From an uncultured Candidatus Saccharibacteria bacterium (GTDB lineage: Bacteria; Patescibacteriota; Minisyncoccia; Phycocordibacterales; JAKAEA01), in assembly GCA_964467325.1 (NCBI GenBank), contig CAYXSG010000001.1, positions 8,953 through 72,952 of the forward strand: a DNA stretch of 64,000 bases. Reading direction: 5' to 3'. The position numbers were made by a program, and so were the translations under genes. Below the pieces are notes generated by a model. That model saw only the letters and a program-made list of their open reading frames with translations, made no database searches and had not been told where the DNA came from. Positions 1,980-58,341 of this stretch are shown in pieces. Positions within the stretch are counted from its first letter, which is position 1. Every line of letters begins with the position of its first letter.

Positions 1980-2386
1980 AAATCTTCATCATTTGCAGCA
2001 AAAGGTTTTACGGCAATATTCCGGAAATTCAAAAAGTTTTGGAGAAAAACGGCCACAAAATAACTTTGCCGAATTGCTATGAAGATCCGGCGACGGAAGA
2101 CCGGAAACGCAATCTTGGACGGAAAGCTCACGCAAAATGGAAAGCGGAAATGCTGAATAATAGCGCGAAAGTGATGGGTAAGCAGGACGCCGTACTCGTT
2201 TTAAACTTTGAAAAAGATGGCATGAAAAATTATGTTGGCGGCGCAACGTTTTTGGAAATGTATGATGCGTTCCGACTGGGCAAGAAAATTTTCCTTTACA
2301 ATGACATTCCGGAAGGGATTCTTAAGGACGAAATTGTCGGATTTAACCCTGTGATCATCGGCGGCAATTTGAAAAAAATTAAGTGA
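1976..2386 (+). CDS. nucleoside 2-deoxyribosyltransferase-like (Rossmann) protein
   Basis: Pattern KIFIICS...DAVLVLNFEKDG...VGGATFLEMYDAFRLGKKIFL resembles the Nuc_deoxyri_tr2 family; ATGA overlap with the NUDIX gene. Confidence 0.4.
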   Translation: MKIFIICSKRFYGNIPEIQKVLEKNGHKITLPNCYEDPATEDRKRNLGRKAHAKWKAEMLNNSAKVMGKQDAVLVLNFEKDGMKNYVGGATFLEMYDAFRLGKKIFLYNDIPEGILKDEIVGFNPVIIGGNLKKIK

Positions 2387-2882
2387 GAACTTCTTTCTTC
2401 CAAGAATAGTAAATGGCAAGGGCTGAGCCGACGGAAATGAAAGTGAGACCAGAGTTGTAAATAATTGAGGCAATAAAGGAGGCGTTTTGAAGCTGACCGA
2501 GACTAGATAGAATATAATTCCAATCGTGAATTACGGAATCGCCGCCAAGAAGTTCAAGCTGCATTTTTGCCGCGTCGGCAGCGTAGATGGAAACGTTTAA
2601 AAGATTTTGGCCGACCCAAAGCAGGCAGAGTGCGCCGGAAATTTTTTGATTTTTGCAGAAAAAGTAAATTGAAATCAGGAGCGGCAAAGCAACCTGAAAG
2701 GCGCTGCCGGCCAAGACGTTTACGAACATGCCAAAAACGGAAGAAGGAAAAATGCTGTGCCCGGCCTCATGAAAGATGAGGTTTGCGCTGTCAATTATGG
2801 TGTGCCATTTTGTGTAGGTTTGGACGTAATACCAAAAATAGGCGCACACAACGAGGCTCATCATTACGCGAAAATATTTCAT
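2379..2882 (-). CDS. membrane protein with HExxH motif (putative zincin peptidase, DUF3267-like)
   Basis: Multi-TM protein; FHEAGHSIF HExxH motif embedded in hydrophobic context. Confidence 0.45.
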   Translation of the reverse strand: MKYFRVMMSLVVCAYFWYYVQTYTKWHTIIDSANLIFHEAGHSIFPSSVFGMFVNVLAGSAFQVALPLLISIYFFCKNQKISGALCLLWVGQNLLNVSIYAADAAKMQLELLGGDSVIHDWNYILSSLGQLQNASFIASIIYNSGLTFISVGSALAIYYSWKKEVLT

Positions 2883-3028
2883 CGTTAATATAATTATAGC
2901 AAAAGCTCTTCAGTTTTTCTTTATTTTTATTTTAAAAAGATTTTAACCCCTGTGTGAAAGAATGGCGGAAGAGCCGCGCTATGTGGCGCAGCGAAGGTCT
3001 TTAGTAATTCTCTCGAAAGGAGAATGGT

Positions 3029-3631
3029 ATGAAACGGTTCTGCTTTTTGGCGGCGGTTCTATTTTTCGCGGCAATGTCTGGAGTTCGGCCAGCTTCGGCA
3101 AGCATCATCTGGAGCGACGGCTTTGAGTCGGGGAATTTCTCGGCTTGGAGCGCCACCTCCGGAGGTTGGACGGTGGTCACTTCCACGCTCGCGGCTCATT
3201 CGGGCCTCAAAGGTGCAGACGTGAAAGGCGCGAGTTTGGCAAATGGCGACATGCTTGCTGTTTCGGTTTCTTCTGCGGGCAGCGAAAATTTGCACTGGCA
3301 ATATTGGTTCAAAGTGCGCGATGCGCTTGAATCGGCTGATTCGGTTTTTGCCGAATGGACAGCAAATGGCGCCGACTGGCAAACTTTGACGCAATACACG
3401 AACGTGGCGACGGGCGATTGGCAATTTGCCGATTTCACTTTGCCGATTGGGGCGAACAATAATCCAAACTTAGGATTTCGTTTTCGCGCCACGCTCGGCA
3501 GCGCGACCGACCGAATGAATTTCGACGACGCCGCACTTTCCGGCACGCCGATTGCGGCTGTACCTGAGCCGTCAAGTTTGCTTGGTCTTGGCGTCTCAGC
3601 CTCTTTGCTCTTTTTCCGCCGGCGGAAATAA
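3029..3631 (+). CDS. PEP-CTERM sorting domain secreted protein
   Basis: Signal peptide; C-terminus VPEPSSLLGLGVSASLLFFRRRK (PEP motif + TM + basic tail); RBS AAAGGAG upstream. Confidence 0.7.
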   Translation: MKRFCFLAAVLFFAAMSGVRPASASIIWSDGFESGNFSAWSATSGGWTVVTSTLAAHSGLKGADVKGASLANGDMLAVSVSSAGSENLHWQYWFKVRDALESADSVFAEWTANGADWQTLTQYTNVATGDWQFADFTLPIGANNNPNLGFRFRATLGSATDRMNFDDAALSGTPIAAVPEPSSLLGLGVSASLLFFRRRK

Positions 3632-3654
3632 TTTCGCGATTGTTCTGTGTTATT

Positions 3655-3689
3655 AAGACTTGGTTGGCGCTGCCACCAAGTCTTTTTTT
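3655..3689 (+). terminator. rho-independent terminator
   Basis: AAGACTTGGT-loop-ACCAAGTCTT hairpin followed by TTTTTTT. Confidence 0.6.
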
Positions 3690-3694
3690 ATAAT

Positions 3695-3723
3695 AAAAAA
3701 CTGCCCGACAACAAGTCGGGCAG
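3695..3723 (-). terminator. rho-independent terminator for the minus-strand gene 3767..4150
   Basis: CTGCCCGAC-aacaa-GTCGGGCAG hairpin with a T-run on the minus strand. Confidence 0.55.
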
Positions 3724-3766
3724 CTAGGCAAGATGCTTGGCTTGGCACCTTGCCTAAGCGGGGAAT

Positions 3767-4150
3767 TCAGGCAGCGCGCTTGCGCTTTCGCTCGGGGAAA
3801 ATGCTTTGACCATCGGCAGTTTTGATTCTGTTGATCGCGGCTCGAAGCTGGCGAATCAGCAGTTCCTTCCTGCTCGTCTTGGGATAGATTTTCCGCGCGA
3901 GTGAGTTTGTATCGTCCCTGATCCAAACTTCATACTCAAGACCGCCGTCTTCAATGCTGTTGTGGAAGACGGCGAGGTCCTTCTCCTCACATCGCCAAAC
4001 GTCGATATAACTGCCGTTTGGTTTGGAGCGGACCTGAATGAGTTGTGATGCGTCGAGAGCATTGGCCGCAGCTCGATTTGTACGCAAACCAATCGGTCTG
4101 AGTAGAAGCTGCGGACGGTCACGAAGCGACATTGCTTTGGGCATTTTTGG
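3767..4150 (-). CDS. hypothetical protein
   Basis: Internal Met of the 260-aa ORF preceded by strong SD (AAAGGAGG, 6 nt); the upstream part of the long ORF is low-complexity antisense shadow. Confidence 0.45.
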   Translation of the reverse strand, partial: PKMPKAMSLRDRPQLLLRPIGLRTNRAAANALDASQLIQVRSKPNGSYIDVWRCEEKDLAVFHNSIEDGGLEYEVWIRDDTNSLARKIYPKTSRKELLIRQLRAAINRIKTADGQSIFPERKRKRAA

Positions 4151-4373
4151 TGCCTCCTTTCTTCTGATGGTTAAACTAAACCAAAAACCGGATTTTGGCA
4201 AGAGCAAGCTTTTAGTGTATAGTGCATGGATGGCAAAACGAATGGCGGTAAATACGAAGAATAAAGCGTCGCGGTCCAGAAAAACGAAAAAGCGCCTTGA
4301 AATCAAGCGCGCCATGCTCGCGGCGAAGAAAAAGTGATACAATGTTTGTATTAGCAATAATATAGGAATAATC

Positions 4374-4592
4374 ATGTCAAACGAACTTGAGCATTTGGAG
4401 CAGGAAGAGGAAAAAATAGAAAGAGAGATTGAAGAAGTAAAAAAAGATGAAATGGAAGCAAGAAGTAAAGAAGTAAAACTCGGAGTAGATTTGCAAAAAG
4501 TTAAACAGGAACAGTTTGCACTTAAACAAAGACAATTGGCTGAAGACAAGAGAAAGATGGAAGAAGATCAGAAAAAAAGAAAAGCCGCTTAA
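4374..4592 (+). CDS. K/E-rich coiled-coil small protein (hypothetical)
   Basis: Charged heptad-like repeats; no SD. Confidence 0.3.
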   Translation: MSNELEHLEQEEEKIEREIEEVKKDEMEARSKEVKLGVDLQKVKQEQFALKQRQLAEDKRKMEEDQKKRKAA

Positions 4593-4596
4593 TTTT

Positions 4597-4920
4597 ATGG
4601 AAAACTTTGAAAAAGGTCCGGAACAGATTCCGACAAAAGAAGAGGTGATGGAAGTTATTGGGCGTTTAGTGGAAAATGCTGTAGTTGCTCGTGAATTGTC
4701 TGATGAGCAAGGTTTGTATCTGCTTGAAGCCAGAGTTGAAGGCAAAGAAAAAGGTGAAGTCACGGAATATGGCTATATGAGAAAAGGTCGTTTTCCAAAT
4801 CATAACGAAGCTTCAGAAACTGCAATTAACGTCGTTTATTACCAAGATGAAATGCCTGTGGGCGGAGATAAGGTGGCTGTTTACAATTCTGAAACAGACG
4901 AGTGGGAAGTAGCAAAATAA
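4597..4920 (+). CDS. hypothetical protein
   Basis: Internal Met (MENFEKGPEQ) of the 4516..4920 ORF, after the stop of the upstream ORF. Confidence 0.35.
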   Translation: MENFEKGPEQIPTKEEVMEVIGRLVENAVVARELSDEQGLYLLEARVEGKEKGEVTEYGYMRKGRFPNHNEASETAINVVYYQDEMPVGGDKVAVYNSETDEWEVAK

Positions 4921-4926
4921 TTTTTT

Positions 4927-6027
4927 ATGGTTTTCAGGAGAATTGTCGGCTGGTATGAAAAGTACGAGCGACTCGTGTCGTCCGTTTCGCTCGTGGGCGG
5001 TTTCGTCTTTGACGCGATTTTTCTCAAGCGTGTGGATTTGTTCATTGAAAATTTCTGGATTGTCGTGCATCTTTCCATGGCCGCTGTCGGCATTATTGGG
5101 CTCAATATCGTGGAAAAGCGCCGGACGCAAAGCGCGGAAGGCCAGCAAAGTAAAAGCCGCTGGCATTTCTGGCTCATCATTTGGACGCAGTTTGCCTTCG
5201 GCGGCTTGCTTGCGGCCTTTTTGGTTTTCTATTTTCGCAGCACGACTTTTCTGGTCAACTGGCCATTCATCTTCATTTTGGCTGTAGCTTTTGCCGCCAA
5301 TGAAATTTTCAAGAAGCATTATGTTCGGCTGAGCTTTCAAATCAGCTTGTTTTTTCTTTCGGTTTACGCTTTTGCCATCTTTCTCGTGCCGATTCTCATG
5401 CACCGGATCGGCGCTGACGTGTTCGTTATAAGCGGTGCGGCGAGCCTTTTTGTCCTCGGTTTGTTTTTGGCCGGCTTGCGCTTCATTGCCAGAGAGCGCT
5501 TCGTCCAGAGCCGGAAAATTTTATGGTTTAGCATCGCTGGCATCGTCCTCGTGGTGAACTTTTTATATTTTGCCAACTTGATTCCACCGATTCCGATTTC
5601 GCTCAAAGACGCTGGCATTTATCATTCTGTTTTAAAAAACTCAGCCGGAGGCTACACTGCGACAGAGGAAAATCAAACCTGGCTTGGTATTTTTAAGCAA
5701 TATGAAGACTTTAATGATTTTTCCAACGCGCCGGTTTATGCTTACACCGCAATTTTTTCGCCGACCAATTTCGGCGTCAGCGTCATCCACGATTGGCAAT
5801 ATTATGACGAAACAAAAAAGCAATGGATTTCGGTAAGTAAAATTAGACTGCCGATTGTTGGCGGACGAGACGGCGGCTATCGCACCTACTCCAAAAAGAG
5901 CGGCATTTTTCCTGGTCTTTGGCGTGTGGATGTGAAAACTATAGGCGGCCAGCTCATCGGCCGCTTGAAATTCAACGTCATAGAATCTTCTGCACAGCCT
6001 GCGCTTTCCGAAGTTCGGCTGGAATAG
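4927..6027 (+). CDS. hypothetical polytopic membrane protein with C-terminal extracytoplasmic domain
   Basis: About 6 predicted TM helices followed by a roughly 150-aa soluble domain. Confidence 0.5.
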   Translation: MVFRRIVGWYEKYERLVSSVSLVGGFVFDAIFLKRVDLFIENFWIVVHLSMAAVGIIGLNIVEKRRTQSAEGQQSKSRWHFWLIIWTQFAFGGLLAAFLVFYFRSTTFLVNWPFIFILAVAFAANEIFKKHYVRLSFQISLFFLSVYAFAIFLVPILMHRIGADVFVISGAASLFVLGLFLAGLRFIARERFVQSRKILWFSIAGIVLVVNFLYFANLIPPIPISLKDAGIYHSVLKNSAGGYTATEENQTWLGIFKQYEDFNDFSNAPVYAYTAIFSPTNFGVSVIHDWQYYDETKKQWISVSKIRLPIVGGRDGGYRTYSKKSGIFPGLWRVDVKTIGGQLIGRLKFNVIESSAQPALSEVRLE

Positions 6028-6041
6028 GGTATAATGTTTCC

Positions 6042-7019
6042 ATGATTCAGCCTCAATCTCCAAAGGACAAAGCTTTTATGATTGTCTCGGGAGTGATTGC
6101 TTTTGTAATTATCGGCGGCAGTTTGTATTTTTATTTGTATTCTCAAAAAAAGCAGGACGCGGACAGTGCACTTATCAATTCGCTCAAAGATTCTTTGGAC
6201 GCTTCGTCGCCGCAGCTTCAGCTCCACTCAAGCCTTCTCAAAGCTCAGGCCAATCTCCAAATGCAAACCAATCGCTTGACCGATATGCAAAACGCGCTCA
6301 TTACCCAACAGCAATTTTCTTCGGCAATGAAAAGCGGCTATGACATTGTGGACAGCGCTGTGAAAAAAACTGATGTCATTTCCAAAAAAATCCAAGATGA
6401 AGTGACGACGAAGCGTCAGCAGGTGACTGACGCGCTCAATCTGTGGAAAGATTTGATTGCAAGAACTCCCAAAGATGGCGCCACCGACGAAGTACGTGCT
6501 TTGGCTCAAGCTTATGCTGAAACCGCGCAATCGTATCTGGCCGAACTTCAGGATGTGGTTGATAATCTTACGCCGGAAACTTCTGGTTTGACGCAAAGCC
6601 AGATTGATTCTTACGTAGCGCTGGTGCAAGACGCTTCGCGGTCGGTTGACAGCGTGGTTCAAACTTTGTTGCCGCCCCCGCCGCCAGCAGCACCGCAAAC
6701 CACCGTCGTGGTTGCGGCCGGCAATGATTACGTGCCGCCAGCCCCAATTGTGACGCCGGTGGCGCCGGCGGACGTTGTACACCAGGAGACAGTGGTGGCT
6801 GATGCTCAAAACCAAGTGGAAATTTTGCAGGATCAGATTAATCAAGAGCAACAAGCATCTTCTACCAATCAAAATCCGCCACCACCGCCGGCCGGAAACG
6901 GGCAACAAGACATTTACACCACGCCGTATTCCGACTATTCCACCGCGCAAGGGATTGTCACTCAGCCGGGAGACCCAGAGCTTGTGCCAGGTGCCAACCG
7001 CTACGACAATCCGCAGTAA
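6042..7019 (+). CDS. membrane-anchored coiled-coil / proline-rich protein (hypothetical)
   Basis: Start MIQPQSPKDKAF...; one TM helix; Q-rich coiled coil; PPPPP tracts; TATAAT 8 nt upstream of ATG (leaderless-like). Confidence 0.45.
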   Translation: MIQPQSPKDKAFMIVSGVIAFVIIGGSLYFYLYSQKKQDADSALINSLKDSLDASSPQLQLHSSLLKAQANLQMQTNRLTDMQNALITQQQFSSAMKSGYDIVDSAVKKTDVISKKIQDEVTTKRQQVTDALNLWKDLIARTPKDGATDEVRALAQAYAETAQSYLAELQDVVDNLTPETSGLTQSQIDSYVALVQDASRSVDSVVQTLLPPPPPAAPQTTVVVAAGNDYVPPAPIVTPVAPADVVHQETVVADAQNQVEILQDQINQEQQASSTNQNPPPPPAGNGQQDIYTTPYSDYSTAQGIVTQPGDPELVPGANRYDNPQ

Positions 7020-7051
7020 TTTAAAAATAAAAGGTATAATAAAGTCACGAC

Positions 7052-7477
7052 ATGAAAAATCACCACTGGTACAGAGTTTTGCGAAAGCCGTCGTGGGCGC
7101 CGTCGGAGCGACTGTTTGCGCCGGTGTGGGCTGTGCTCTACCTCCTCATAGCGATTTCTTTCGGTTACGTCGGTTGGCTTTTTTTCAAGCATGAAATTTT
7201 GCCGGCCATCGCTTTCGTTTTCCTTTTAAATCTTGCCTTAAACTTGGCTTTCACGCCGATTCTGTTTGGCTTTCACCATCTCGGTTTAGCTTCGGTTGAT
7301 GTTTTTCTGACATTGGTTACGCTCGCTCTTTGCATGATTCTCATTTATCCTTTTGCCCCGTGGGTGGCACTTGTCAACATTCCATATTTGCTTTGGACCG
7401 CTTTCGCCACTGTCTTGCAGTTTAGAATTACGGCTCTAAACAGGGAAGAGCGACAAGCCGAATTCTCATTCGTATGA
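7052..7477 (+). CDS. tspO: TspO/MBR family (tryptophan-rich sensory protein)
   Basis: N-terminal WYRVLRKPSWAPSERLFAPVWAVLYLLIAISFGYV matches the TspO/MBR signature; 5 TM helices. Confidence 0.65.
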   Translation: MKNHHWYRVLRKPSWAPSERLFAPVWAVLYLLIAISFGYVGWLFFKHEILPAIAFVFLLNLALNLAFTPILFGFHHLGLASVDVFLTLVTLALCMILIYPFAPWVALVNIPYLLWTAFATVLQFRITALNREERQAEFSFV

Positions 7478-8550
7478 GCGACGACATTTTATTCCTGATA
7501 GGGTTTCTTTTTGTGGTGCTTTTGGCTTTCACTTTTTCCCATAGCGGCACGCCGGCTCAAAACGTCGGCATTCTTGGAAATATTTCAAGCAATCCGAGCG
7601 GCTCGGTTTATACTACTTCACCGGTGAGCGTTTCAAAAAATTCCGCACCGACGATTTCCTATTTTTCTCAAAGCGCTGGTCCGGTTGGGATGAGTACCAC
7701 TGTCTATGGCACTGGTTTTCTCAAGAGTAACACTGTGCATTTTGGCGCGACCAATGTTTTCGCCAGTTCCGACGACGGCACCACGCTCGTTTTCAAAGTT
7801 CCTTCTCTCCCAGTGCAAACTTGCGTCGGCAATTCTCAAAACTGCGTGATTCCGGCGCAAAATACCCAAACCAATTTGGGCACGTATCAAGTTTTTGTTT
7901 CAAATACTAACGGTCAGAGCAATAATTTATCTTTTACCATCGGCGATTATGGAACCAATTACGGCTTAAGTCGGCCGCAGATTACCAATGTAGTTGGGCC
8001 GCAGAAACTTTTGCCGAACGATTCTGGAGTGTGGTCGATCACAGTCAGCGTTTCAAATCCGACGACGCTCATCGTGTCGGCCGATTGGGGCGATGCCAAC
8101 GTTTCCAACAATGGCGGGTCGGGCACAAGGCGAATCAGTATTTCAAAAACTCAGACGATCGCTTTGAGCCACTCTTACCACACACTCGGCAGCTACAACA
8201 TAAATTTTAACGTGATTGATGATGATTCTTCTTTGGCCACTTCTTACACGCAGCCGGTGACTGTCGTTTACGCGCCGCCGGTGGATGTTTCGCAACTTAA
8301 GATTTCTTATTTGTCACAAGGCTACGGTCCGGCCGGCACGCAGATTGCTATAATTGGCGGTGGTTTTTCCGCTTCGCCGGTCACCATTCACTTCGGCAGC
8401 ACGGCTTTGCGCGCCACACCGCAAAATTACGGCACCGCGCTCTATTTCAACGTCCCAGCCAATACGCCGGTCGGCTCATATCAAATTTACGTTTCCAACG
8501 ACCTCGGCCAAATCACCGACACAAATTATTTCTCCGTGACGAACCCTTAG
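7474..8550 (+). CDS. secreted/anchored hypothetical protein (beta-rich, possible IPT/TIG-like repeats)
   Basis: N-terminal TM/signal sequence; S/T/N-rich beta-strand composition. Confidence 0.45.
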   Translation: MSDDILFLIGFLFVVLLAFTFSHSGTPAQNVGILGNISSNPSGSVYTTSPVSVSKNSAPTISYFSQSAGPVGMSTTVYGTGFLKSNTVHFGATNVFASSDDGTTLVFKVPSLPVQTCVGNSQNCVIPAQNTQTNLGTYQVFVSNTNGQSNNLSFTIGDYGTNYGLSRPQITNVVGPQKLLPNDSGVWSITVSVSNPTTLIVSADWGDANVSNNGGSGTRRISISKTQTIALSHSYHTLGSYNINFNVIDDDSSLATSYTQPVTVVYAPPVDVSQLKISYLSQGYGPAGTQIAIIGGGFSASPVTIHFGSTALRATPQNYGTALYFNVPANTPVGSYQIYVSNDLGQITDTNYFSVTNP

Positions 8551-8577
8551 TCGTTTGATACAATATTTATAAATCAC

Positions 8578-9213
8578 ATGAAACAATCTCGCCTTGACTC
8601 TCTTTCGGACGGCATTTTCGCAATCATTCTGACGCTCATGACTTTTGAATTCAAGATTCCTTTCATGGCTGGCATGGTCAATGATGAAAAACTTTGGACG
8701 GCGCTCACCACACTCTGGCCGGTTTTCCTCAGCTTCATTTTGAGTTTTGCTTTGCTTTTCACCTACTGGCATGCGCACCACTACATTGTTTCGGTGTACG
8801 CCAAAAGTGTGGACCGCCGACTCACCAGCATCAATGCCATCTTTTTCTTTTTCATTTCGCTCATTCCTTTTTCCACCAGTCTCATCGGCACCTACAGCCA
8901 AACCAAGCTCGCCATCATTATCTACGCCCTAAACGTTTTGGCCATCGGTTTTTCGCTTTTGTGGATGCGCAGCTACGTTTTGACTTCCGGCCACATTGAT
9001 CACGCATTCGTTTTGGTTTCAGAAAAGCGCCGCGGCTTCATTCGAGTAATTGCGCCCATGACTTTCGCTGTCATTGCCATCATTGCTTGCTTTTACAGCA
9101 CATGGTTTGCTTTTCTCCTTCTCACTTTAGCGACGATTTTCAATTTGTTTTCAAGAAGCACGCGTTTCGTAAACTGGCTCATCAAAAAGACGAAAGAGGA
9201 GATTGCCGGCTAG
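8578..9213 (+). CDS. TMEM175/DUF1211 family putative potassium channel
   Basis: N-terminal RLDSLSDGIFAIILTLMTFEFKIP matches the DUF1211 RxxxFSDGxxAIxxTLLxLE signature; 6 TM helices. Confidence 0.65.
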   Translation: MKQSRLDSLSDGIFAIILTLMTFEFKIPFMAGMVNDEKLWTALTTLWPVFLSFILSFALLFTYWHAHHYIVSVYAKSVDRRLTSINAIFFFFISLIPFSTSLIGTYSQTKLAIIIYALNVLAIGFSLLWMRSYVLTSGHIDHAFVLVSEKRRGFIRVIAPMTFAVIAIIACFYSTWFAFLLLTLATIFNLFSRSTRFVNWLIKKTKEEIAG

Positions 9214-9229
9214 CTTTTTAATTGAGAGA

Positions 9230-11554
9230 TTAGACCACTTCGCAGACGCCGGAGGCGCAGGCGAGTTCTTTTTTGAGTTCGGTTTCGTCTACTTTTTCGT
9301 AAGTGATGATTTTTGAGAAATCAATGTGCGCCATTCTTTTCGCAAGCTCTTCGTAGCGCTTTTCGTCGATGGCTTCGTAAGGTGCGAGTTGGTAGACGTG
9401 GTTGTCGCGAGGCAAGAAGGACAGGCCGCCGACGATTTCCCAGTTGGCGTAAACCCAGTTGGCGACTTCAATCCATTCGCTGTCGCCGACGGAAACGGTC
9501 ACAGAAGGATTGTGTTCGGTGTAATTGACTTTTACCAGTTTCCAATATTCAAGTTGTTTAATGGCCGAAACACTGTCTTTGAAAACGGAATTTACTGGCG
9601 CTTTAACAGGAAATTCTAGAACGTAAGTGTTGGCGCTCTCAGCATTCTGACCGACCTCTGGAAAGTACGGCACGCCTTGATCTTTGAGCATCTTGAAGAG
9701 TGCGTCGGTGGCGGAAATGCGGACGCGGCGAATGTAGAAAGCGGAATTGCGAGCGTGCATGCCGCTGGCGCAGTCCACCATTTGCGAAAGGGTGCCGGAC
9801 GGCTTGACGCAGGTGATGGCTGTGGAAGCGCTAATTCCAAATCGCTTTGCGTATGTCTGGTTTACTTTGATGGATTCTTTTTTGAGTTTCAAAAGCGTTT
9901 CGGCATTTTGCACGGCTGGGCAATCCCACTGGCCGGTGATGGATACGCCGAGTAAGCGTTCAGCGTCGCAGTGCTCTTTCCATTCTTTTGAAAGGTAAGG
10001 GAAATGGGTGAGGCTGGATTGATATGTGCCGAGAATCGTGGCGATGCGGATTTTTCGCAAGAGCGACTTTTCCGTGTCGGTGGAACGTGCTACGACTTCC
10101 GAGAGGTTGCAGAATTGTTTTGATTGCAAAATGATTTCGCCGCAAGGGTTCGTGCCGATTGAACCGATGATGTGCTTGCCTGATGCGTCGAAATAGCCTT
10201 TGTAACCTTTCAAATGGTCAATGCGGCGCTTCGGCAGAGTTTGAGCGAGCGAGCCGCGGTTGAAGATGCCTCGTTCGCCGGCATGGCTTTCAATGAGCGC
10301 CATCCATTCTTTCAAAAATTCTTCGTTGGTCGGCTTGGAAGTGTAAACGGCGGAGTTGTTCGCGAGCGAGCGGTGCGGATGAGTGACATAAAATGCACCT
10401 TGCTTTGAGTCGCGAATGTCCATATCGTCCAAATCGGAAAGGGAAATCATCGCGCTTCGGCGTACGCCGCCGGAAACGACGCAATCGCCAATCATGCAGA
10501 TGATGTCGTGCACGTCAATGTTGCGCAGGCGCTTGCCTTGTCGATTCATCATCGTTTCTCGAGTGAAAGAAAGTAGTCGGCGAAGCGGATCGGGACCGGA
10601 AGACTTGCCGCCCATAGTCTTGAGGCGAGTACCAGCGGCGCGCAATTGTGAAAAATCAAATGCGATATCTTTGCCAGCGGCCCAAGTTTTCATACCGAGC
10701 GTGAGTGCATCGGCCCAGCCTTCTTTTGAGTCAGGAATGACGTGCGTCGGTAATTTTTCCCCAGTTTGAGGGAGAATTTGCGGAAATTTTTGAACGTTTT
10801 GGCTTTCCACCGACCAACCAGCGCCGGTGCCGCACATGGAAATGTACATAATCTCTGCCAAATCTTGAAAACTTTCTGGCGCGATGTATGAGCAGTTGTA
10901 AGCGCAAACATTTGTCGCGCGCGCCGCTTTGCCAGAAAATTGCAAAAGGCGCATGGAAGGCATGGCTTCTTGTTTCAAAATGCCCTGACGCACTTCTTCA
11001 TATTCGGCATCCGTGAGTTTCTTGCCGAGATTTTCTTTCATGAAAGTCATGTAGCGGTCAATGGTTTCAATCCAAGTTTCGCGGCGCGATTCATTTTCAA
11101 TCCAGCGAGAATAGCTTCTATAATAGACAAATTCGCCCAAAGGACTGGCAAAATACTTCTTGCTGTCGGTGGCCAGCTTCTTCACATGCTCCGGCACCTC
11201 AATGCCGCGGGCGCGGAGCTTGGCGCGTTCCTCTCGGTACAAGATGAACGCTTTCGAAGTCTTCACATATTCGCTCAAAATGAGTTCGCGCTCCACGCTG
11301 TCCTGAATGCCTTCAACGGTAGGCACAAAATTTTTGTATTTTTTGGAAATTCTCACCAAATCGGCGAACACTTTGTTGGCCACCATGCTCGCTTCCATGT
11401 CGCTGCCTTCGTTCACAGCAATCATGGCTTTGTGGATGGCGTTTGCAATCCGACTTAGGTCAAAAGGCACAATGGAGCCGTCTCGCTTCTGCACTGTTTT
11501 GATAAAATCCGACGGCTTCGTTGATCGCACCTCAGACTTTTTTGTCGTATTCAT
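9230..11554 (-). CDS. nrdJ: adenosylcobalamin-dependent (class II) ribonucleotide reductase with N-terminal ATP-cone
   Basis: ATP-cone (KTVQKRDGSIVPFDLSRI...); catalytic NPCGEI motif; C-terminal CASGVCEV redox cysteine pair; 774 aa. Confidence 0.8.
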   Translation of the reverse strand: MNTTKKSEVRSTKPSDFIKTVQKRDGSIVPFDLSRIANAIHKAMIAVNEGSDMEASMVANKVFADLVRISKKYKNFVPTVEGIQDSVERELILSEYVKTSKAFILYREERAKLRARGIEVPEHVKKLATDSKKYFASPLGEFVYYRSYSRWIENESRRETWIETIDRYMTFMKENLGKKLTDAEYEEVRQGILKQEAMPSMRLLQFSGKAARATNVCAYNCSYIAPESFQDLAEIMYISMCGTGAGWSVESQNVQKFPQILPQTGEKLPTHVIPDSKEGWADALTLGMKTWAAGKDIAFDFSQLRAAGTRLKTMGGKSSGPDPLRRLLSFTRETMMNRQGKRLRNIDVHDIICMIGDCVVSGGVRRSAMISLSDLDDMDIRDSKQGAFYVTHPHRSLANNSAVYTSKPTNEEFLKEWMALIESHAGERGIFNRGSLAQTLPKRRIDHLKGYKGYFDASGKHIIGSIGTNPCGEIILQSKQFCNLSEVVARSTDTEKSLLRKIRIATILGTYQSSLTHFPYLSKEWKEHCDAERLLGVSITGQWDCPAVQNAETLLKLKKESIKVNQTYAKRFGISASTAITCVKPSGTLSQMVDCASGMHARNSAFYIRRVRISATDALFKMLKDQGVPYFPEVGQNAESANTYVLEFPVKAPVNSVFKDSVSAIKQLEYWKLVKVNYTEHNPSVTVSVGDSEWIEVANWVYANWEIVGGLSFLPRDNHVYQLAPYEAIDEKRYEELAKRMAHIDFSKIITYEKVDETELKKELACASGVCEVV

Positions 11555-11686
11555 ACGGAGAAAATAAAAAAATTATTTATTAAAATTAAAATAAAACTGC
11601 TTACGTATTTTACTGCACATGCGACATTGATTGCAAGCGCAAAACTACTTGCGCTTTTAAAAAAAACAAGTCATACTCAGATTCTC

Positions 11687-12223
11687 ATGAAAAATCGTTC
11701 GCAAATCGTGCTCGCCGTCATTTTTATCGTCCTTGGCGTCTCGGTGCGCTTCGCGCCGCACGTTTGGAACTTCGCGCCGGTGGCCGCCATCGCTTTGGCC
11801 GCTTCGGCTTACCTCGGTCTCGCTTATTCCGTAGCGATTATTTTTGCCATCATGATTTTGAGCGATATTTCGCTCGGTTTTTACGAATGGCAAATCATGC
11901 TTGCGGTTTACGCCAGCTTTTTGGCGAGCGCGCTCATCGGTTTGGCGCTTCGGAAAAATAAAACCGTGCTGAAAATCGCGGGTGCTAGCATTGCTTCGTC
12001 CTTGGTTTTCTTTTTTGCAACCAATTTCGCTGTATGGCAATTTTCCGGCATGTATTCTAACACTTTCGCCGGTTTAGAAGCGTGTTTCATCGCCGCGTTG
12101 CCGTTTTTCCGCGGCACGTTCTTCGGTGACCTCTTCTTCTCGGCTTTTTTCTTTACTGTTTTTGAATTTGCACTGCGTTTCGTGTCATCTCAATCTTCCA
12201 AAAAAATTTCTGTTACCTATTGA
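11687..12223 (+). CDS. polytopic membrane protein, possible ECF-type vitamin transporter S-component (divergent to nrdJ)
   Basis: 6 TM helices; WNFAPVAAIAL...G motif reminiscent of ECF S-components; start MKNRSQIVL inside the 11627 ORF. Confidence 0.35.
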   Translation: MKNRSQIVLAVIFIVLGVSVRFAPHVWNFAPVAAIALAASAYLGLAYSVAIIFAIMILSDISLGFYEWQIMLAVYASFLASALIGLALRKNKTVLKIAGASIASSLVFFFATNFAVWQFSGMYSNTFAGLEACFIAALPFFRGTFFGDLFFSAFFFTVFEFALRFVSSQSSKKISVTY

Positions 12224-12315
12224 CTTAAAAACCTATCTATGTTATTGTGGTGTGAGAACGGTCATTTTGACCGCGTAATATAAAGGTTTCTCAACTCTCT
12301 AACAAGGAGCTTCAA

Positions 12316-12984
12316 ATGAAGCGATTGGTTTTGATTGTGGCGATTTTGTTGTTGTCTCGAGTGGCTGATGCTTCGCTGGTTGTCGGTTCCATTTCTGACA
12401 AGCCCGATGAGTTTGGTCATCTGCAGAACATTCTGCAAGTTGACTTTCCGTCTGGCGGATCGGCAACAGCATCCTACTGGATGGATTCGGGAAATCCAGG
12501 ATTTGCCGGCGTTCAAATGAAAACGCCACACTGGATTGATAGTGTGACCAGCGTCATTATGCCGAATGACTTCCCGATAAATTCGGATTCCGACCTTTAC
12601 GATTTCAAGACGGTCATTACTGGTCGTGAAGTGCCTGCATCTGGCTCTGGACTTGGCGCGAGTGTAACGCCGAGTTTGCAAGATGATGCTGCGTTTCTCG
12701 TCGGACGTGTGTCTCTAGAACACTACAATGATGTATACGGCATTCGCGATTATGCGGATAGCCATATATACGTGGCTCCGGACTCTGTCGTCGGCGCTCG
12801 GCTGACTTACGAGGGGGAATTGGGAGCGGACAGACTTGGCTTTGTGATAACTTACGATTTGGTTTTCTCAGCCGATTCGGGGTTTGTTACAGAGCCGGTG
12901 ATGCTCGGAACGGTTCCGGAGCCAACCTCAATGGGAATTATCGGTATCGGCACTATCGGACTTCTTTTCCGCCGCCGACGATAA
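12316..12984 (+). CDS. PEP-CTERM sorting domain secreted protein
   Basis: Signal peptide; C-terminus VPEPTSMGIIGIGTIGLLFRRRR. Confidence 0.7.
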   Translation: MKRLVLIVAILLLSRVADASLVVGSISDKPDEFGHLQNILQVDFPSGGSATASYWMDSGNPGFAGVQMKTPHWIDSVTSVIMPNDFPINSDSDLYDFKTVITGREVPASGSGLGASVTPSLQDDAAFLVGRVSLEHYNDVYGIRDYADSHIYVAPDSVVGARLTYEGELGADRLGFVITYDLVFSADSGFVTEPVMLGTVPEPTSMGIIGIGTIGLLFRRRR

Positions 12985-13049
12985 CTTGCGTTCTTTCTCG
13001 AAAACAGAAATCTCAGGCCTCACTGCATCAGCGGTGAGGCCTTTTCATT

Positions 13050-13967
13050 TTAATTTGAGAATGAAAATGTGGAACTAATCTGATTGAAGAAGTTTAATCC
13101 TCTTTGACTGTCTTCAAAGCTGTTTTCTGGGGTCACCGTAACTATTCTATATTCAAACCCATTGTGTACCAGCACGTTGTAATAAAAGGACTGATTTTGT
13201 CCTTGCACAGCTGTGCCTACTGATAAAAATAAAGCCTTATCGCCACCAACAGTCACATCTTTGATTGTGAGTTGCTTCTGAAGATTCTGGCGTATGGTTT
13301 CAAATGACTCGCCAGCATGAAGAGGTCTAACTGTTACAGCTCCAAGAGTTTTTCCATCCGGACTATATGCCTCTACCGCTTTCACGGTGCCAAAAGTATC
13401 AACTGTGCTGTCGTATGCTTGTTTTGAACCCTCCGGAAAAGTTATTTCAAAGCCGTATTTTTGATCTGTCCAATTCAGACTGGTGGCGGTTTCAATTCCG
13501 TATTTTTGAGATACGATTTGAGAATTAATAACCGTTTTAAAAACCGAAACACTAAAGTAACCAATCACAATGACAGCAATAAGACTCATTAGAAACACCA
13601 ACTGAACCACCAGCTTTAAATATTCACCGCTTAGAAAATTCCGCTTTAAATAGGCTAGAAGAGTTATTCCTGCCAAAATGAGGAAAATTATCAGGGCACC
13701 AATACTAAAATTAAACGGTAAAGACAATAAATCTAGTGCACAAATTAAAACAAACAACGGCAATATCCATTTTTTAATAGTAAACCAGCCATAACCGGCA
13801 ACAATCGTCATGCAGAAAACCCCTAGCGGCAAAATAACAATCCATAAAGGATAGGCTGAACGTATAGAAGGAACAAAAAACCAAATGCAAATTACAAGAG
13901 CAAGAAAAGAAAAAATAAAGTAGATAATACCAAGAAACTTCCAAAATAAACGCAAGGATTTAGGCAT
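13050..13967 (-). CDS. hypothetical membrane protein (N-terminal TM bundle + C-terminal soluble domain)
   Basis: 4-5 TM helices, then a beta-rich domain. Confidence 0.45.
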   Translation of the reverse strand: MPKSLRLFWKFLGIIYFIFSFLALVICIWFFVPSIRSAYPLWIVILPLGVFCMTIVAGYGWFTIKKWILPLFVLICALDLLSLPFNFSIGALIIFLILAGITLLAYLKRNFLSGEYLKLVVQLVFLMSLIAVIVIGYFSVSVFKTVINSQIVSQKYGIETATSLNWTDQKYGFEITFPEGSKQAYDSTVDTFGTVKAVEAYSPDGKTLGAVTVRPLHAGESFETIRQNLQKQLTIKDVTVGGDKALFLSVGTAVQGQNQSFYYNVLVHNGFEYRIVTVTPENSFEDSQRGLNFFNQISSTFSFSN

Positions 13968-18686: not shown

Positions 18687-19193
18687 TTACTGAGTGATTT
18701 CTGGATGTTCCTGCAAGTATTTGTCTCTTATATACACACCGAGCGTAGGCGCAGTATCTTGCATGCTGCGTTTTGGATTATTGTAGAAAAAAACCTTAAG
18801 AAAGCTCATGTATTCTTTATCGTACAGCACTGAAACGGATTTAATGGCTGCAATTTCGATATCGTATTTCAATTTTGGGTTCTCACTCTCGATGCACTTG
18901 TAAAAATCATCTTTATTTTTTTCAAAGATATTATCAAATCCGATTTTAGTTATGAGATTTTCTCCCTCGGTTGTTAATTTGAGAGGACTGTAAGCCTGCA
19001 ATTCTGAAGGATTGAAGTTCGTATTATTGCGAGTCAAAAAATCACTGACAACCTTCACGTTTGATTTGATTTTATGAGTCGTTATTTTCAAATCATCCAA
19101 AATCTGCAGTTTTCTGCCTATGTAGAGAACTGCACCAAGAATTGTTGCGATGCCTATTGTTGATAAAATATTATAAATCATATTCATAACCAT
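18687..19193 (-). CDS. hypothetical membrane-anchored protein, AT-rich (likely acquired)
   Basis: GC far below flanks; N-terminal TM helix plus soluble domain. Confidence 0.4.
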   Translation of the reverse strand: MVMNMIYNILSTIGIATILGAVLYIGRKLQILDDLKITTHKIKSNVKVVSDFLTRNNTNFNPSELQAYSPLKLTTEGENLITKIGFDNIFEKNKDDFYKCIESENPKLKYDIEIAAIKSVSVLYDKEYMSFLKVFFYNNPKRSMQDTAPTLGVYIRDKYLQEHPEITQ

Positions 19194-28905: not shown

Positions 28906-28992
28906 GGAGGGTTCGCATAGTGGTCTAGTGCACACGCTTGGAAAGCGTGCGTGGGGCAACCCACCAAGAGTTCGAATCTCTTACCCTCCGCC
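28906..28992 (+). tRNA. tRNA-Ser (anticodon GGA), long variable arm
   Basis: Acceptor GGAGGGT/ACCCTCC; D-arm GCATAGTGGTCTAGTGC; anticodon loop TTGGAAA; T-arm GGTTCGAATCC-like; about 87 nt. Confidence 0.75.
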
Positions 28993-29032
28993 TTCGTTTC
29001 TGAAGAATTTAGTTGTATCATTAAACTCAATA

Positions 29033-30114
29033 TGAAAAACTCACAAAAAGGTTTCGTTGTGCCTTTATTAATAGCGATTATTGCGGTGTTGGTGGTAGGT
29101 GGCGTGGTCTATATTTATTCACAGAAAAAATCTGAGGTTCCTCAGGCTAATCAGCCTTTGGATAATGTACAGACAAATCAAAATCCTCAAAATAATCAAC
29201 AACCCCCTCATATTGATTCAGTTACTCCTTTTGTTGATCCAAATGGAAACACTCAATTTTCTGTTAAAGGCAGCGGGTTTTTGGGTTCAAACCCATATGT
29301 TGATGGACAAAGCGCAACGTACAGTGCAAGTAGTCTAACTGATACAGAAGTTACTTTGCTTTCTGTTAAGCAACTCGCAGTTCCAGGGAATCATTCCGTT
29401 TATTTAACAAATCCTACAACTGGGAAAAGCAATGTTTTTTCTTTTCAGTCTGGAGCGGTAAATTCTAATTCTCATTCGCAAAATAATGTCGCCAAAACTG
29501 TAAGTGTATCCGGTATGTTGCAATATACTGACTCAATTTTTGGGTTTTCGTTTTGGTACCCGGCGACATGGAGTGTTCAAAAAAAAGAAGCATTTGACAC
29601 AAATCCAGAAAAAACATATGAAGGAGGTTCGCTCATTGAGACTATAACAGTATCTCCTCCTCAAGGTTCAAGTTATGGTATTGCTATAGAAGAATTTGTC
29701 TCAGCAGATAAAAGTATTAAAGATAATTCTGTCTGTGGACCAGCAGATGGATGTCCTTCGGCTATACGTTATTATTTCGACAGTAGCATCCACACATGGA
29801 TGAAGGATTCATATTTTGACTATGGCCAATATTCGTCACCGACAAAAACCGCACCAGCCGATGTCTCAGTCAATTCAATGGGCGGACTTCATATACTACG
29901 AGGTAATGCTAGATTTGGTGATAACGTCATAGTACCACTCAGTGCGAAGAACTTTCTGGTTGTACACAATGTAGGCGTAGGAACAAATAGTATAAAATTT
30001 TTGGCGAATACGATTCTTGCTCTTGATCCGGCAGTTGCTACTCCAGTAAGTTCGGCACAGCAAATACAAACTATTCAGGCCGAGGGAAATGAATACGCTT
30101 CTTATAAATGGTAG
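29033..30114 (+). CDS. membrane-anchored secreted hypothetical protein (Q/N-rich linker, beta-rich domain)
   Basis: Start MKNSQKGFVVPLLIAIIAVLVV (signal anchor); the ORF start at 28951 overlaps the tRNA and is rejected. Confidence 0.5.
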
Positions 30115-35264: not shown

Positions 35265-36074
35265 ATGTTTTCTGAAAAAAGCCTATTTGAAAAAGAGGGT
35301 TTACATTTAGAAAAAGAAAGAGTTTTAACCTACTCAAAACTTTTTTGTCCCCTAGGTTGTAAATACTGTTTTGCCGAAGATTTAGAAGGACGTTCAGGTG
35401 ATAAAGTATCTTATTTATCAGAAGATCAGTTGAATGCCTTAGAAAAAATTCCACCGGAAATTAGCTTGATAATGTTAGGCTGTGATACAGAGTTTTTTCA
35501 ATCAAAAGAAGGTTCATTGGAGATTTTAGAAAGATTATCCCATTCCGATAGAGATATTTCTATTGTAACTAAGATGGATTTAGATTCAGATTTTGTAAAA
35601 TCACTTAAAAATTTTGATGAGGTTTTAAATAAAAATAACAAATCACTTTTTGTTTCTTTTTCTATACCTTGTTTGGATTCTGCAAAAATTTGGGAACCAG
35701 GAGCTCCTGACCCAAACGCAAGAATTGAATCAATGAAAATAGTTCATGATGAAGGTATAAAATCTTTTGTAGCAATAAGACCATTGCTTCCTAGTGTTCC
35801 TGATGATGAATTAGAGAGAATAGTTGATATGACTAAAGGTTATTCGCAAGGTTATTATTCTGGGCCACTATATGTGAAAAATTTAGACCAAGGTTTAGTA
35901 GATACAAATAATCCGGAATTAAAAATTGAATTGGTTCGGCCAGATTGGATGCCTGAAGGTAACGAATTTTATAGAATCCAAAAAGATGGTCAAATGGAAT
36001 TTCTAAGAGACACAATAATTAAAAGCGGAAATATTTTGTTTGAAGGAGCTGCTGATGCCATAGCTCACATTTAA
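35265..36074 (+). CDS. radical SAM domain protein (CX3CX2C), AT-rich, function unknown
   Basis: FCPLGCKYCFA motif at residues 27-36; about 30% GC vs about 50% flanks. Confidence 0.6.
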   Translation: MFSEKSLFEKEGLHLEKERVLTYSKLFCPLGCKYCFAEDLEGRSGDKVSYLSEDQLNALEKIPPEISLIMLGCDTEFFQSKEGSLEILERLSHSDRDISIVTKMDLDSDFVKSLKNFDEVLNKNNKSLFVSFSIPCLDSAKIWEPGAPDPNARIESMKIVHDEGIKSFVAIRPLLPSVPDDELERIVDMTKGYSQGYYSGPLYVKNLDQGLVDTNNPELKIELVRPDWMPEGNEFYRIQKDGQMEFLRDTIIKSGNILFEGAADAIAHI

Positions 36075-48577: not shown

Positions 48578-49456
48578 ATGCTAAAGTTGAAAAATAAGAA
48601 TTGGTATTTGGTTTTGGCAGGCATGCTAGTTTTGGTCTTTATATTTTTCATTTTTGCTTTCAGTAAAAAGGAAAATGTAAATCAGACAGTCAATATTATT
48701 TTGTCGCCGCATTATGACGATGCGGTGCTTTCGCTTGGCGGCTTTATCACCAAGAATAAAGCTTCAGAGCCGATAATTGTCGCGACGTTTTTTACCGGCG
48801 CGCCGACAGTTGCAACGTCCACAGCTTGGGACATTGCTTCGGGCTTTAAGGATAGCACCGAAGCCGTGAAGGCTAGGATAGCAGAAAACGCCAGAGCACT
48901 TAATGGAAAAAATATTACGCTGGTTGATTATGGCTACTTAGACAATCAATATAGAAATCAAAGCGATGATTCTGATTTGCTAGCGCAAAATATTTCTAAG
49001 GATATTCAAGCGCTCATCGCGTCGCAAGCTGGGAATGTCAATGTGTACGGGCCGGCCGATTTTGGAAGTGGAATTACGCATCCCGACCACAAATTGCTTC
49101 ACGATGCGTACGTTGATAGCATTGCTTCTTTCCCAAAAACCAATGTCTCATTCTATTTCTACGAAGATTTTCCATACATAGAAAAGTTTAACGCTTCTTC
49201 AACGCATTCAATACAAAATTATCTTGAACAAGAAACCGGCTTTTTGCTCGAACCGACTCCAGTTTTGCTTTCAGACGGACAGCTGGCGGAAAAGGAATCG
49301 CGCATCGGAGCTTATGATTCCCAAATTAAAGCTTTAGACAAAAGTGAAGATGCTTCCGTTTTGGCGCGCGCTCACGATTTTTTCAAAAATCGTTGCGGCA
49401 ACCAAGAATCTATACAGGCGTGTGAGATGACCTACAAAGTTTTCATCGCGCCTTAG
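48578..49456 (+). CDS. PIG-L/LmbE family N-acetylglucosaminyl deacetylase, membrane-anchored
   Basis: SPHYDDAVLSLGG and HPDH motifs. Confidence 0.75.
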   Translation: MLKLKNKNWYLVLAGMLVLVFIFFIFAFSKKENVNQTVNIILSPHYDDAVLSLGGFITKNKASEPIIVATFFTGAPTVATSTAWDIASGFKDSTEAVKARIAENARALNGKNITLVDYGYLDNQYRNQSDDSDLLAQNISKDIQALIASQAGNVNVYGPADFGSGITHPDHKLLHDAYVDSIASFPKTNVSFYFYEDFPYIEKFNASSTHSIQNYLEQETGFLLEPTPVLLSDGQLAEKESRIGAYDSQIKALDKSEDASVLARAHDFFKNRCGNQESIQACEMTYKVFIAP

Positions 49457-50868
49457 TCTTTTCTGATTTTAAATATTGCCAGCTCGCAATTGCTATTTTT
49501 AGCTATGACGTCAAAAACGGCTTCTTCTTTGGCACGCAGCGCGCCCAACAAACTATCTTTGGCGTTTTGGCAAGAAGCTTCACTGGTGGCGCATGATGTT
49601 TGACAAGAATTGTTAACGAAATAATCGGTTTTATTTTCGTAGCGGCCATAAGCACTGAGTCCGTTTTCCCAATTCTCATAAATTTCGTCTAGCTTAACGT
49701 CCGAAAGGCCGACAATCATCGGGTAGTTTGTGACGACGTGAACGCCGGTCTTGTCGTCAAAGAAATGTTCGAATCTTGAAAAATCAGCAAATGAATCGGA
49801 TGTGCCGGAATATATTTTAACCAATGCGAATGACGATGCGGCAAAGTATGCAATTAGAATCACAAGAGCTGCCCTCGTCGGCGTGCCAGAAGGTTTTTTC
49901 TCCGCCGAGTACGCAATAGCATAACCAGCAAGTAGCACGGCGTAAGGAAGAAATGCAATGGCGTAGCGTACTTCTCGGTGATGGTTTTGCGAGAAATAGG
50001 CACCGACGATGACTAGGCAAAACGAAAGCAGGATTGTCGCTCTGTGAAATTTTAGGCGCTTCCAAAAAGGTGTAGCAATGAGAACCAAATAGCCAAAAAT
50101 AATGAACCAATTTTGTCTCAGAAGTTCTTTGGCGTAAAAGAAATAATCTCCGGTGTCTTGTTCGTTTGGAATACTGGCAACGCTTGAAGCAGTTTTGATT
50201 GGAAGAAGTGCGTCGCCGTAGAATATTTTTGAATAAATAAGAAACGGAACGATGAGTACGGACGTGCCAAGAATAAGCAAGCCGGCGCGTTTCATAAATT
50301 CCCGCCACGCTTTCGTTTCACAAGCTTCAACGAATAGGAAGCAGATGATGGGTGCAAAAGTTAAAGCATGTGGAAATCGGAACGTGAAAGCAATTGAAAC
50401 CATGAGGCCGGACCAAAACCAGCGCTTGTTGAGCGCGAACCAGACGGCCAAAAGCGACCAAAAAACCGAAGGAATGTCGGTAATCGGAATGGCGGCAAAG
50501 GAAAAGAAGACCGGCATGGCGGCGAGAATAAGAGCCGCAAAAGCGCCGGCGTATTTTTTCATGGACTCGCCAATCAAATATACGAGACAGAAAACGCCGG
50601 CGCTGAAAATGATTTCGAGAATTTTGCCGCAGAAGTTTGGATCTAAACCGAGTCGCCAAAATCCGCCTTGAATGAGCGGCCAAAGGTAAGGGCGCAACAC
50701 CTCAAACACACCAATGCGACCGTGCGTGTAAACAAACTTGCCAATACCGATGTATATGGACGCGTCCCACCATTCGAGTGCCGGCTGAAAAATGAGCCAA
50801 ACTCTCATGAGGAGTGCGGCGGCAAGTGTGAAAATAAAAATTCTTTTAGGACTTAGTGCTTGTGGCAT
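49453..50868 (-). CDS. GT-C family glycosyltransferase (ArnT/PMT/GT39-like)
   Basis: About 11 TM helices, 471 aa, N-terminal loop with conserved acidic/aromatic motif. Confidence 0.65.
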   Translation of the reverse strand: MPQALSPKRIFIFTLAAALLMRVWLIFQPALEWWDASIYIGIGKFVYTHGRIGVFEVLRPYLWPLIQGGFWRLGLDPNFCGKILEIIFSAGVFCLVYLIGESMKKYAGAFAALILAAMPVFFSFAAIPITDIPSVFWSLLAVWFALNKRWFWSGLMVSIAFTFRFPHALTFAPIICFLFVEACETKAWREFMKRAGLLILGTSVLIVPFLIYSKIFYGDALLPIKTASSVASIPNEQDTGDYFFYAKELLRQNWFIIFGYLVLIATPFWKRLKFHRATILLSFCLVIVGAYFSQNHHREVRYAIAFLPYAVLLAGYAIAYSAEKKPSGTPTRAALVILIAYFAASSFALVKIYSGTSDSFADFSRFEHFFDDKTGVHVVTNYPMIVGLSDVKLDEIYENWENGLSAYGRYENKTDYFVNNSCQTSCATSEASCQNAKDSLLGALRAKEEAVFDVIAKNSNCELAIFKIRKD

Positions 50869-51505: not shown

Positions 51506-51514
51506 TTTATTTTA

Positions 51515-58260: not shown

Positions 58261-58341
58261 AGGTGTTCTGAATTCTAGATAAAATCTTTCTAAAGCCTTG
58301 TAAACAGTCTGGCTGGTTTGGGCGTGGTAGACTGGGTGAAT

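Follow-up and report, generated by a model that had tools for sequence, protein, structure and literature searches.

A 64,000-nucleotide window of contig CAYXSG010000001.1 (positions 8,953 to 72,952), from an uncultured Candidatus Saccharibacteria bacterium, encodes two exported proteins that end in PEP-CTERM sorting domains and, elsewhere on the same stretch, a sortase with a giant pilin-like neighbour. On the sequence evidence this is a known signal in a lineage that is unusual and new for it, the candidate phyla radiation (CPR). Both proteins can be placed by sequence in the PEP-CTERM domain family, and their membership of a full PEP-CTERM/exosortase system is unproven. With evenly balanced confidence, we judge that an exosortase-family enzyme encoded beyond the window cleaves both tails at P-E-P, and that the sortase-pilin locus works independently of it. 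The two genes and their signals are listed below in window coordinates.

3029-3631, plus strand: gene 1, encoding a 200-aa exported protein with a signal peptide, one beta-sandwich like those of carbohydrate-binding modules (CBMs) and a PEP-CTERM tail
3017-3022, plus strand: Shine-Dalgarno sequence AAGGAG of gene 1, by sequence, 6 nt 5' of the ATG
3029-3100, plus strand: predicted signal peptide of protein 1 (aa 1-24, ending A-S-A before S; from inspection of the translation)
3101-3550, plus strand: putative CBM-like beta-sandwich passenger of protein 1 (aa 25-174; sub-threshold CBM_4_9 match, AlphaFold2 model and fold search)
3560-3628, plus strand: PEP-CTERM sorting domain of protein 1 (aa 178-200, VPEPSSLLGLGVSASLLFFRRRK)
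3699-3725, strand unassigned: strong hairpin 3' of gene 1 (11 pairs), scored as a minus-strand terminator and marking the end of a transcription unit
12220-12248: promoter-like site 5' of gene 2, predicted from sequence
12304-12309, plus strand: Shine-Dalgarno sequence AAGGAG of gene 2, 6 nt 5' of the ATG
12316-12984, plus strand: gene 2, encoding a 222-aa exported orphan protein with a PEP-CTERM tail
12913-12981, plus strand: PEP-CTERM sorting domain of protein 2 (aa 200-222, VPEPTSMGIIGIGTIGLLFRRRR)
13015-13042, plus strand: hairpin 3' of gene 2 resembling an intrinsic terminator (12 pairs, 8 of them G-C, with a T-run)

Judged by curated sequence models, both tails are confirmed as genuine PEP-CTERM domains and not chance transmembrane (TM) segments with basic ends. 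Against cut-offs of 16 bits for TIGR02595 and 20.7 bits for PF07589, the tail of protein 1 (AVPEPSSLLGLGVSASLLFFRRRK) scored 27.3 and 22.3 bits and that of protein 2 (TVPEPTSMGIIGIGTIGLLFRRRR) scored 22.4 and 30.8 bits, so that each passed both models. A preliminary description of this DNA had reported two open reading frames (ORFs) with signal peptides and PEP-CTERM tails, with coordinates that proved exact, and had allowed that the tails might fall short of TIGR02595 as coincidental resemblances, which they do not. The extreme C terminus of each protein is tripartite, with a P-E-P motif, a hydrophobic helix some 14 residues long and a cluster of basic residues. The combination of VPEP, an uncharged span and an Arg-rich end occurs in two of the 815 stop-to-stop segments of the window, and these two are genes 1 and 2.

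Conservation of the motif across homologues points in the same direction. Protein 1 belongs to a family, here termed family 1, of 13 clustered sequences recovered from a search of 5.8 billion proteins, and the PEP tail is kept in 11 of its 12 homologues with the consensus [VI]PEP[SAG]. At P179 and P181 the alignment shows no variation, and 12 of the 13 members have E180; next come a variable hydrophobic span and an Arg cluster. Column entropy is 0.13 bits over P-E-P, compared with 1.21 bits in the folded domain and 2.28 bits in the TM span. Even among CPR orthologues that share 45-60% identity, P-E-P is near-invariant while the TM residues drift. Since P-E-P is the most conserved element of the family, the tail would appear to be a signal read by a partner protein. 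Protein 2 retrieved only itself among 5.8 billion clustered proteins, and a candidate remote homology between it and family 1 was rejected, the alignment being limited to the tail. The 23-residue tails of the two proteins are 52% identical on passengers that are otherwise unrelated, as expected if they co-evolve with one enzyme (PMC1569441).

Both proteins begin with what looks like a Sec signal peptide, having a K/R n-region, a hydrophobic core and an A-x-A site: MKRFCFLAAVLFFAAMSGVRPASA followed by S in protein 1 (by inspection and from the N-terminal helix of an AlphaFold2 (AF2) model) and MKRLVLIVAILLLSRVADA followed by S in protein 2 (by inspection). The AF2 helix of protein 1 spans residues 2-17 and the first strand starts at residue 25. 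No further TM segment precedes either tail, by inspection and, for protein 1, also by AF2, and neither protein is among the window ORFs with at least four predicted TM segments. The NCBI call of gene 1 (P0001) is 185 aa long, starting at an internal Met and losing the signal peptide, as against 200 aa for P0015; we favour the 200-aa start because of the AAGGAG site and because the homologues all have a hydrophobic N terminus. From the sequence, both genes look monocistronic, given the hairpins and, for gene 2, the promoter-like site, in keeping with the usual organization of PEP-CTERM genes as single-gene operons (PMC1569441).

The AF2 model of protein 1, built from the 13-member alignment, has a pLDDT of 84.6 and places a single beta-sandwich between the signal and tail helices, with a linker of about 4 residues separating the sandwich from the PEP motif. 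Its best fold matches in the PDB are CBM61, CBM16, CBM22, CBM4 and gingipain adhesin domains (Foldseek E ~2e-7; target-normalised TM-score 0.67-0.74; sequence identity 15-21%). CBM_4_9 (PF02018) scored 20.2 bits on protein 1, under the Pfam gathering score of 25.9, and a PF02018 match is precomputed for homologues P0012 and P0013. The passenger thus shares the beta-sandwich fold of the non-catalytic CBM4/9, 16, 22 and 61 modules and gingipain adhesin domains, and differs from those CBMs in standing alone with no enzyme attached, in its low identity and in its sub-gathering Pfam score. The modelled fold suggests a small module of lectin or adhesin type, which makes protein 1 a candidate adhesin. 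A 728-aa protein at L013:7545-9731 carries two tandem family-1 CBM-like domains (47% and 41% identity) and no PEP-CTERM tail; the CBM-like module therefore also serves in larger surface proteins.

The sequence supports assignment of the contig to the CPR (Parcubacteria/Minisyncoccia-type), as the preliminary description had supposed in calling the genome CPR-like. The protein 1 homologue P0006 lies in a Candidatus Staskawiczbacteria metagenome-assembled genome (MAG), CAISIO01. The gene next to gene 1, encoding a membrane protein with an HExxH motif, has relatives at 64-69% identity, and the named members of its family are all Minisyncoccia, Parcubacteria, Pacebacteria or Zambryskibacteria. Other family-1 contexts are CPR-like neighbourhoods, including contigs with PilM-type genes. 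Patescibacteria have been proposed to have no outer membrane (PMC12102498), and no outer-membrane markers were found among the proteins scanned in the 64-kb window; the outer membrane that formed part of the 2006 definition of PEP-CTERM systems, with its diderm requirement (PMC1569441), is probably lacking in this host.

Of the 52 genes of the window whose composition was analysed, gene 1 has the highest GC content (0.551, z = +1.9); gene 2 has a GC z of +0.9. GC3 is ordinary for both (z = 0.86 and -0.08), and a recent horizontal transfer is therefore unsupported by composition. The junction between gene 1 and the HExxH gene recurs in an independent European Nucleotide Archive (ENA) assembly (L001), which argues against a chimeric contig. 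We find it hardly credible that the tails resemble PEP-CTERM domains by chance or that the genes sit on a chimeric or contaminant diderm stretch. The domain is short and hydrophobic, so that hidden Markov model (HMM) statistics may be optimistic, and the GC content of gene 1 could be read in the same sense; however, two curated models are passed by both tails, the tail is retained across nearly all of family 1, CPR-type genes flank both genes on either side on one contig, the junction is reproduced in L001, and family members occur in CPR contexts, namely the Staskawiczbacteria MAG and the contigs with PilM-type genes.

Several observations weigh against an exosortase-based reading of the two tails. 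Exosortases (EpsH/Xrt) have at least eight TM segments and the motifs C-x-G, N-x-x-R and H-x-x-x-G (PMC1569441). Window ORFs that have at least four predicted TM segments and resemble real genes were scanned with Pfam; for the eight largest membrane proteins, NCBIfam was used as well. No match to PF09721 or to an Xrt/Art NCBIfam model was found among these multi-TM ORFs, which were DUF2914, TspO, TMEM175, DUF6580, MFS, M48, VTT, PMT_2 or glycosyltransferase family 2 (GT2) proteins, or were unmatched. The EpsH series C-x-G...N-x-x-R...H-x-x-x-G was present in none of 558 ORFs of at least 150 aa across the 326 kb of loci analysed, and these empty scans bear out the earlier statement that no exosortase is visible in the window. 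Nor was an exosortase found beside family-1 homologues in any of the neighbourhoods covered. The genome-collection scan yielded one family-1 locus and the metagenome scan four, none with an exosortase-like neighbour. Synteny around family 1 is mostly missing, with a Dus-PEP pairing in L006, L002 and L029. PEP-CTERM genes number two in the 64-kb window, against a median of eight PEP-CTERM proteins per genome in classical systems (PMC1569441), and none of the papers in the library searched attributes an exosortase or PEP-CTERM proteins to Patescibacteria themselves. The sorting enzyme is thus one that we infer rather than observe, from scans covering 64 kb of the genome; PEP-CTERM genes are usually scattered and lie away from the exosortase (PMC1569441).

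Two membrane proteins of the window were considered as cryptic exosortases and rejected. The 7-TM DUF2914 protein (4927-6027) had no exosortase HMM match and no EpsH series, and its TM region is cysteine-free; the 5-TM protein (13050-13967) likewise gave no HMM match and lacked the EpsH series. The gene for the 7-TM protein lies between the two PEP-CTERM genes, and its DUF2914 domain is C-terminal (53.6 bits). Close by, two ORFs overlap on opposite strands, 5919-7019 (plus) and 6228-6950 (minus), of which the former, encoding a Pro/Gln-rich, membrane-anchored, coiled-coil-like protein, looks the more plausible gene.

Under the exosortase-based reading, the tail helix would keep each protein in the cytoplasmic membrane after Sec export, with P-E-P at the outer face. 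A cysteine transpeptidase of the exosortase/archaeosortase family, encoded outside the window, would recognise P-E-P and remove the TM and Arg anchor, so that the passenger stays at the cell surface. If the lineage has no outer membrane, as is proposed, the result would be like that of archaeal ArtA or Firmicute XrtG: the protein would be held on the single membrane, the wall or the glycan layer and would not cross an outer membrane. LPxTG-type signals would be read independently by the sortase-pilin locus at 60.8-64 kb.

Among known systems, the two proteins share with the diderm PEP-CTERM/exosortase system of EpsH and XrtA (PMC1569441) the signal peptide, [VI]PEP, a TM span some 14 residues long and the C-terminal Arg cluster, as well as passengers with little known homology, a monocistronic look and glycan-synthesis genes on the contig. 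They differ from it in their CPR host, proposed to be without an outer membrane (PMC12102498), in the two copies seen, and in that no EpsH/Xrt, PrsK/R/T regulators or sigma-54-type context was seen in the window. ArtA of Haloferax volcanii cleaves the tripartite C-terminal signal of PGF-CTERM proteins and leaves them lipid-anchored on a single membrane (PMC11980579), and by analogy it is the most plausible functional model for a CPR cell, although its motif is PGF and not PEP, it belongs to another domain of life, and no ArtA homologue was seen here. XrtG/Firmicu-CTERM of Lactiplantibacillus plantarum, a monoderm Firmicute with sortase substrates besides, belongs to the exosortase family and is linked to GT2 glycosyltransferases (PMC12854382); there, unlike here, the genes for XrtG, for its substrate and for the glycosyltransferases lie side by side, and the signal is Firmicu-CTERM and not PEP-CTERM. 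The preliminary description had taken PEP-CTERM sorting to imply a diderm host, which overstates the case, since ArtA, in archaea without an outer membrane (PMC11980579), and XrtG (PMC12854382) both work without one. It had also called the coexistence of two sorting systems unusual; uncommon it is, but not unprecedented, given XrtG together with sortase in L. plantarum (PMC12854382).

An unlikely, though by no means negligible, alternative is that the tails have no cognate enzyme and are plain membrane anchors, the CBM-like module being already displayed at the surface and the signal being a relic of a diderm-type protein, come down by inheritance or acquired horizontally. The failure to find an exosortase in the window or beside any homologue is in line with this, and in a cell proposed to have no outer membrane (PMC12102498) surface exposure needs no cleavage. 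A distant family-1 member with CBM and PEP-CTERM domains lies on a contig that resembles a PVC-type diderm (one faint SBP_bac_10 match), so that the architecture is the classical one; this favours the exosortase-based reading but is compatible, too, with transfer from a diderm, and the high GC content of gene 1 may be read likewise. On the other hand, a plain anchor has no need of a P-E-P that stays near-invariant while the TM span drifts, an unrelated orphan in the same genome carries the same motif, and the ordinary GC3 leaves recent transfer unsupported. The short linker would, moreover, bury the lectin module beneath the wall unless it were released.

CPR bacteria, or Patescibacteria, are obligate epibionts whose surface proteins mediate attachment to the host. 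To our knowledge, little has been established of how these proteins are sorted and anchored beyond type IV pili and sortase. A conserved PEP-CTERM domain on a lectin-like module would widen the range of the exosortase-type signal to include bacteria believed to have no outer membrane, would indicate a second route of surface display beside sortase, and offers concrete candidate adhesins. Were the whole genome to lack an exosortase, the conserved P-E-P would demand a new recognition enzyme, which the present evidence does not require. As standard annotation pipelines would already label both genes PEP-CTERM, the finding is modest as it stands.

The gene divergent from gene 1 is a weak candidate for such a partner.

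2379-2882, minus strand: HExxH membrane protein of 167 aa, divergent from gene 1, a weak processing-partner candidate

This protein belongs to a CPR-wide family of membrane proteins of about 165 aa with at least 281 clustered members. Residues H38, E39, G41, H42, D103, G113, G114, H119, D120 and W121 are invariant, and the set HExGH, D103, GG(D) and HDW is metalloprotease-like. AF2 models it with confidence as a helical membrane protein (pLDDT 91.2) that has no specific PDB match, and Peptidase_M50B gave faint matches in 4 of 53 members (best E 0.007). From its sequence, the protein may be a minimal membrane metalloprotease.

It is improbable that this protein acts as a small metalloprotease within the membrane and, in place of an exosortase, cuts the PEP-CTERM tail, and of slender probability, too, that in a CPR cell without an outer membrane, and possibly without a classical exosortase, PEP-CTERM tails are processed by another enzyme for which the HExxH family would be the candidate. 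In favour of such a role, besides the metalloprotease-like residues, the helical model and the faint Peptidase_M50B matches, stands the adjacency of HExxH and family-1 genes in the window and in L012. These are the only two genes of L012 with homologues in the 64-kb window (HExxH at L012:2156-2659, 48% identity, E 9e-45); their relative orientation differs, and the L012 locus is otherwise non-syntenic with the window. The junction reproduced in L001 counts on the same side. Unrelated protease classes are known to serve tripartite C-terminal signals, rhombosortase for GlyGly-CTERM and the CPBP-type myxosortase for MYXO-CTERM being the analogues (PMC11980579), and if the idea were true the HExxH family would add a further class of C-terminal sorting protease, as rhombosortase and myxosortase did. 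The evidence against a dedicated processing protease is nevertheless the stronger. The HExxH family is about 20 times larger than the 13-member family 1, and the protein has no significant Pfam, NCBIfam or PDB sequence match. As a general partner it was rejected for want of a PEP-CTERM neighbour in four further independent HExxH contexts, and as a dedicated one because it is not adjacent in 5 of 7 distinct family-1 contexts, the pairing being limited to the window and L012; nor does it lie beside gene 2.

The exosortase-based reading leaves the sortase of the window to a separate system, which consists of two adjoining ORFs.

60786-61427, plus strand: sortase (PF04203 70.3 bits; TIGR01076 43.7 bits against a cut-off of 39.35), with the motif LTLSTC (TLxTC)
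61432-63999, plus strand: first 856 aa of a giant surface protein with SpaA/PKD repeats, which extends beyond the window and is the presumed sortase substrate

The sortase with a giant pilin-like neighbour, as first described, was upheld: PF04203 and TIGR01076 are both passed, and directly downstream lies an ORF, at least 856 aa long, that carries SpaA_2 (69.5 bits), SpaA and PKD_4 domains. No class-specific sortase model was passed by ORF 60786-61427. In having a TLxTC sortase directly upstream of a SpaA/Cna-B-type repeat protein, the locus is like the sortase/LPXTG pilus loci of Gram-positive bacteria, and it is unrelated to both PEP-CTERM proteins, whose signal is of another type. Relatives of the giant protein are 532-4883 aa long. 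Among 150 representatives, a regular expression for a C-terminal uncharged span with a basic end flagged 37, of which 15 have LPxTG or LAxTG-type motifs and several a VNTG variant; a PEP tail occurs in none of the 37. With Thr-Gly-type tails and no PEP in these relatives, we take the sortase system to read Thr-Gly-type signals and to be separate from the PEP tails.

That the two tails are divergent sortase signals handled by this sortase is accordingly very improbable. The two kinds of signal do share a tripartite architecture and are known to cross-match, LPXTG domains being the top noise matches of the PEP-CTERM model (PMC1569441); a sortase is present in the window; and [LV]-P occupies motif positions 1-2 as in LPXTG. 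Yet the tails read VPEPS and VPEPT, with no Thr-Gly scissile pair, and [VI]PEP[SAG] is the canonical PEP-CTERM motif. LPXTG-anchor models matched neither protein at E <= 10, the relatives of the giant protein never carry PEP, and the PEP genes lie 48-57 kb away from the sortase. To judge by these motifs, the caution about LPXTG noise does not apply to the two tails.

One SpaA-like relative, P0143, ends in ...AAIPEFPTLAALFLALLGGPLAYALLRRRKV, a tail that we take to resemble PEF-CTERM (archaeosortase-type); a single SpaA-like passenger family may be carried on different sorting signals across lineages. Immediately upstream of the sortase-pilin locus lie genes for a PIF1-like helicase (58318-59991) and a CARDB-domain membrane protein (59988-60746).

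The glycan-synthesis genes of the contig form one cluster, which is the only exopolysaccharide-type context in the window.

48578-52798, strand unassigned: surface-glycan cluster encoding a PIG-L deacetylase, a PMT_2-type glycosyltransferase, a 219-aa protein and a PgaC-like GT2

Exopolysaccharide-type genes are present, in a cluster that is generic and has no link to an exosortase. Its GT2 synthase (PgaC/IcaA-like) scored 198.9 bits on TIGR03937, below the cut-off, and 123 bits on the XrtG-associated TIGR03111, against a cut-off of 364. The gene content suggests a PNAG-like polymer in a CPR bacterium. The 219-aa protein of the cluster is a membrane protein.

Four genes of the window (35265-36074, 18687-19193, 13050-13967 and 28951-30114) are low in GC (0.32-0.39, z -1.6 to -3.3, against a window mean of 0.465), with GC3 down to 0.185, and on this composition they may have been recently acquired.

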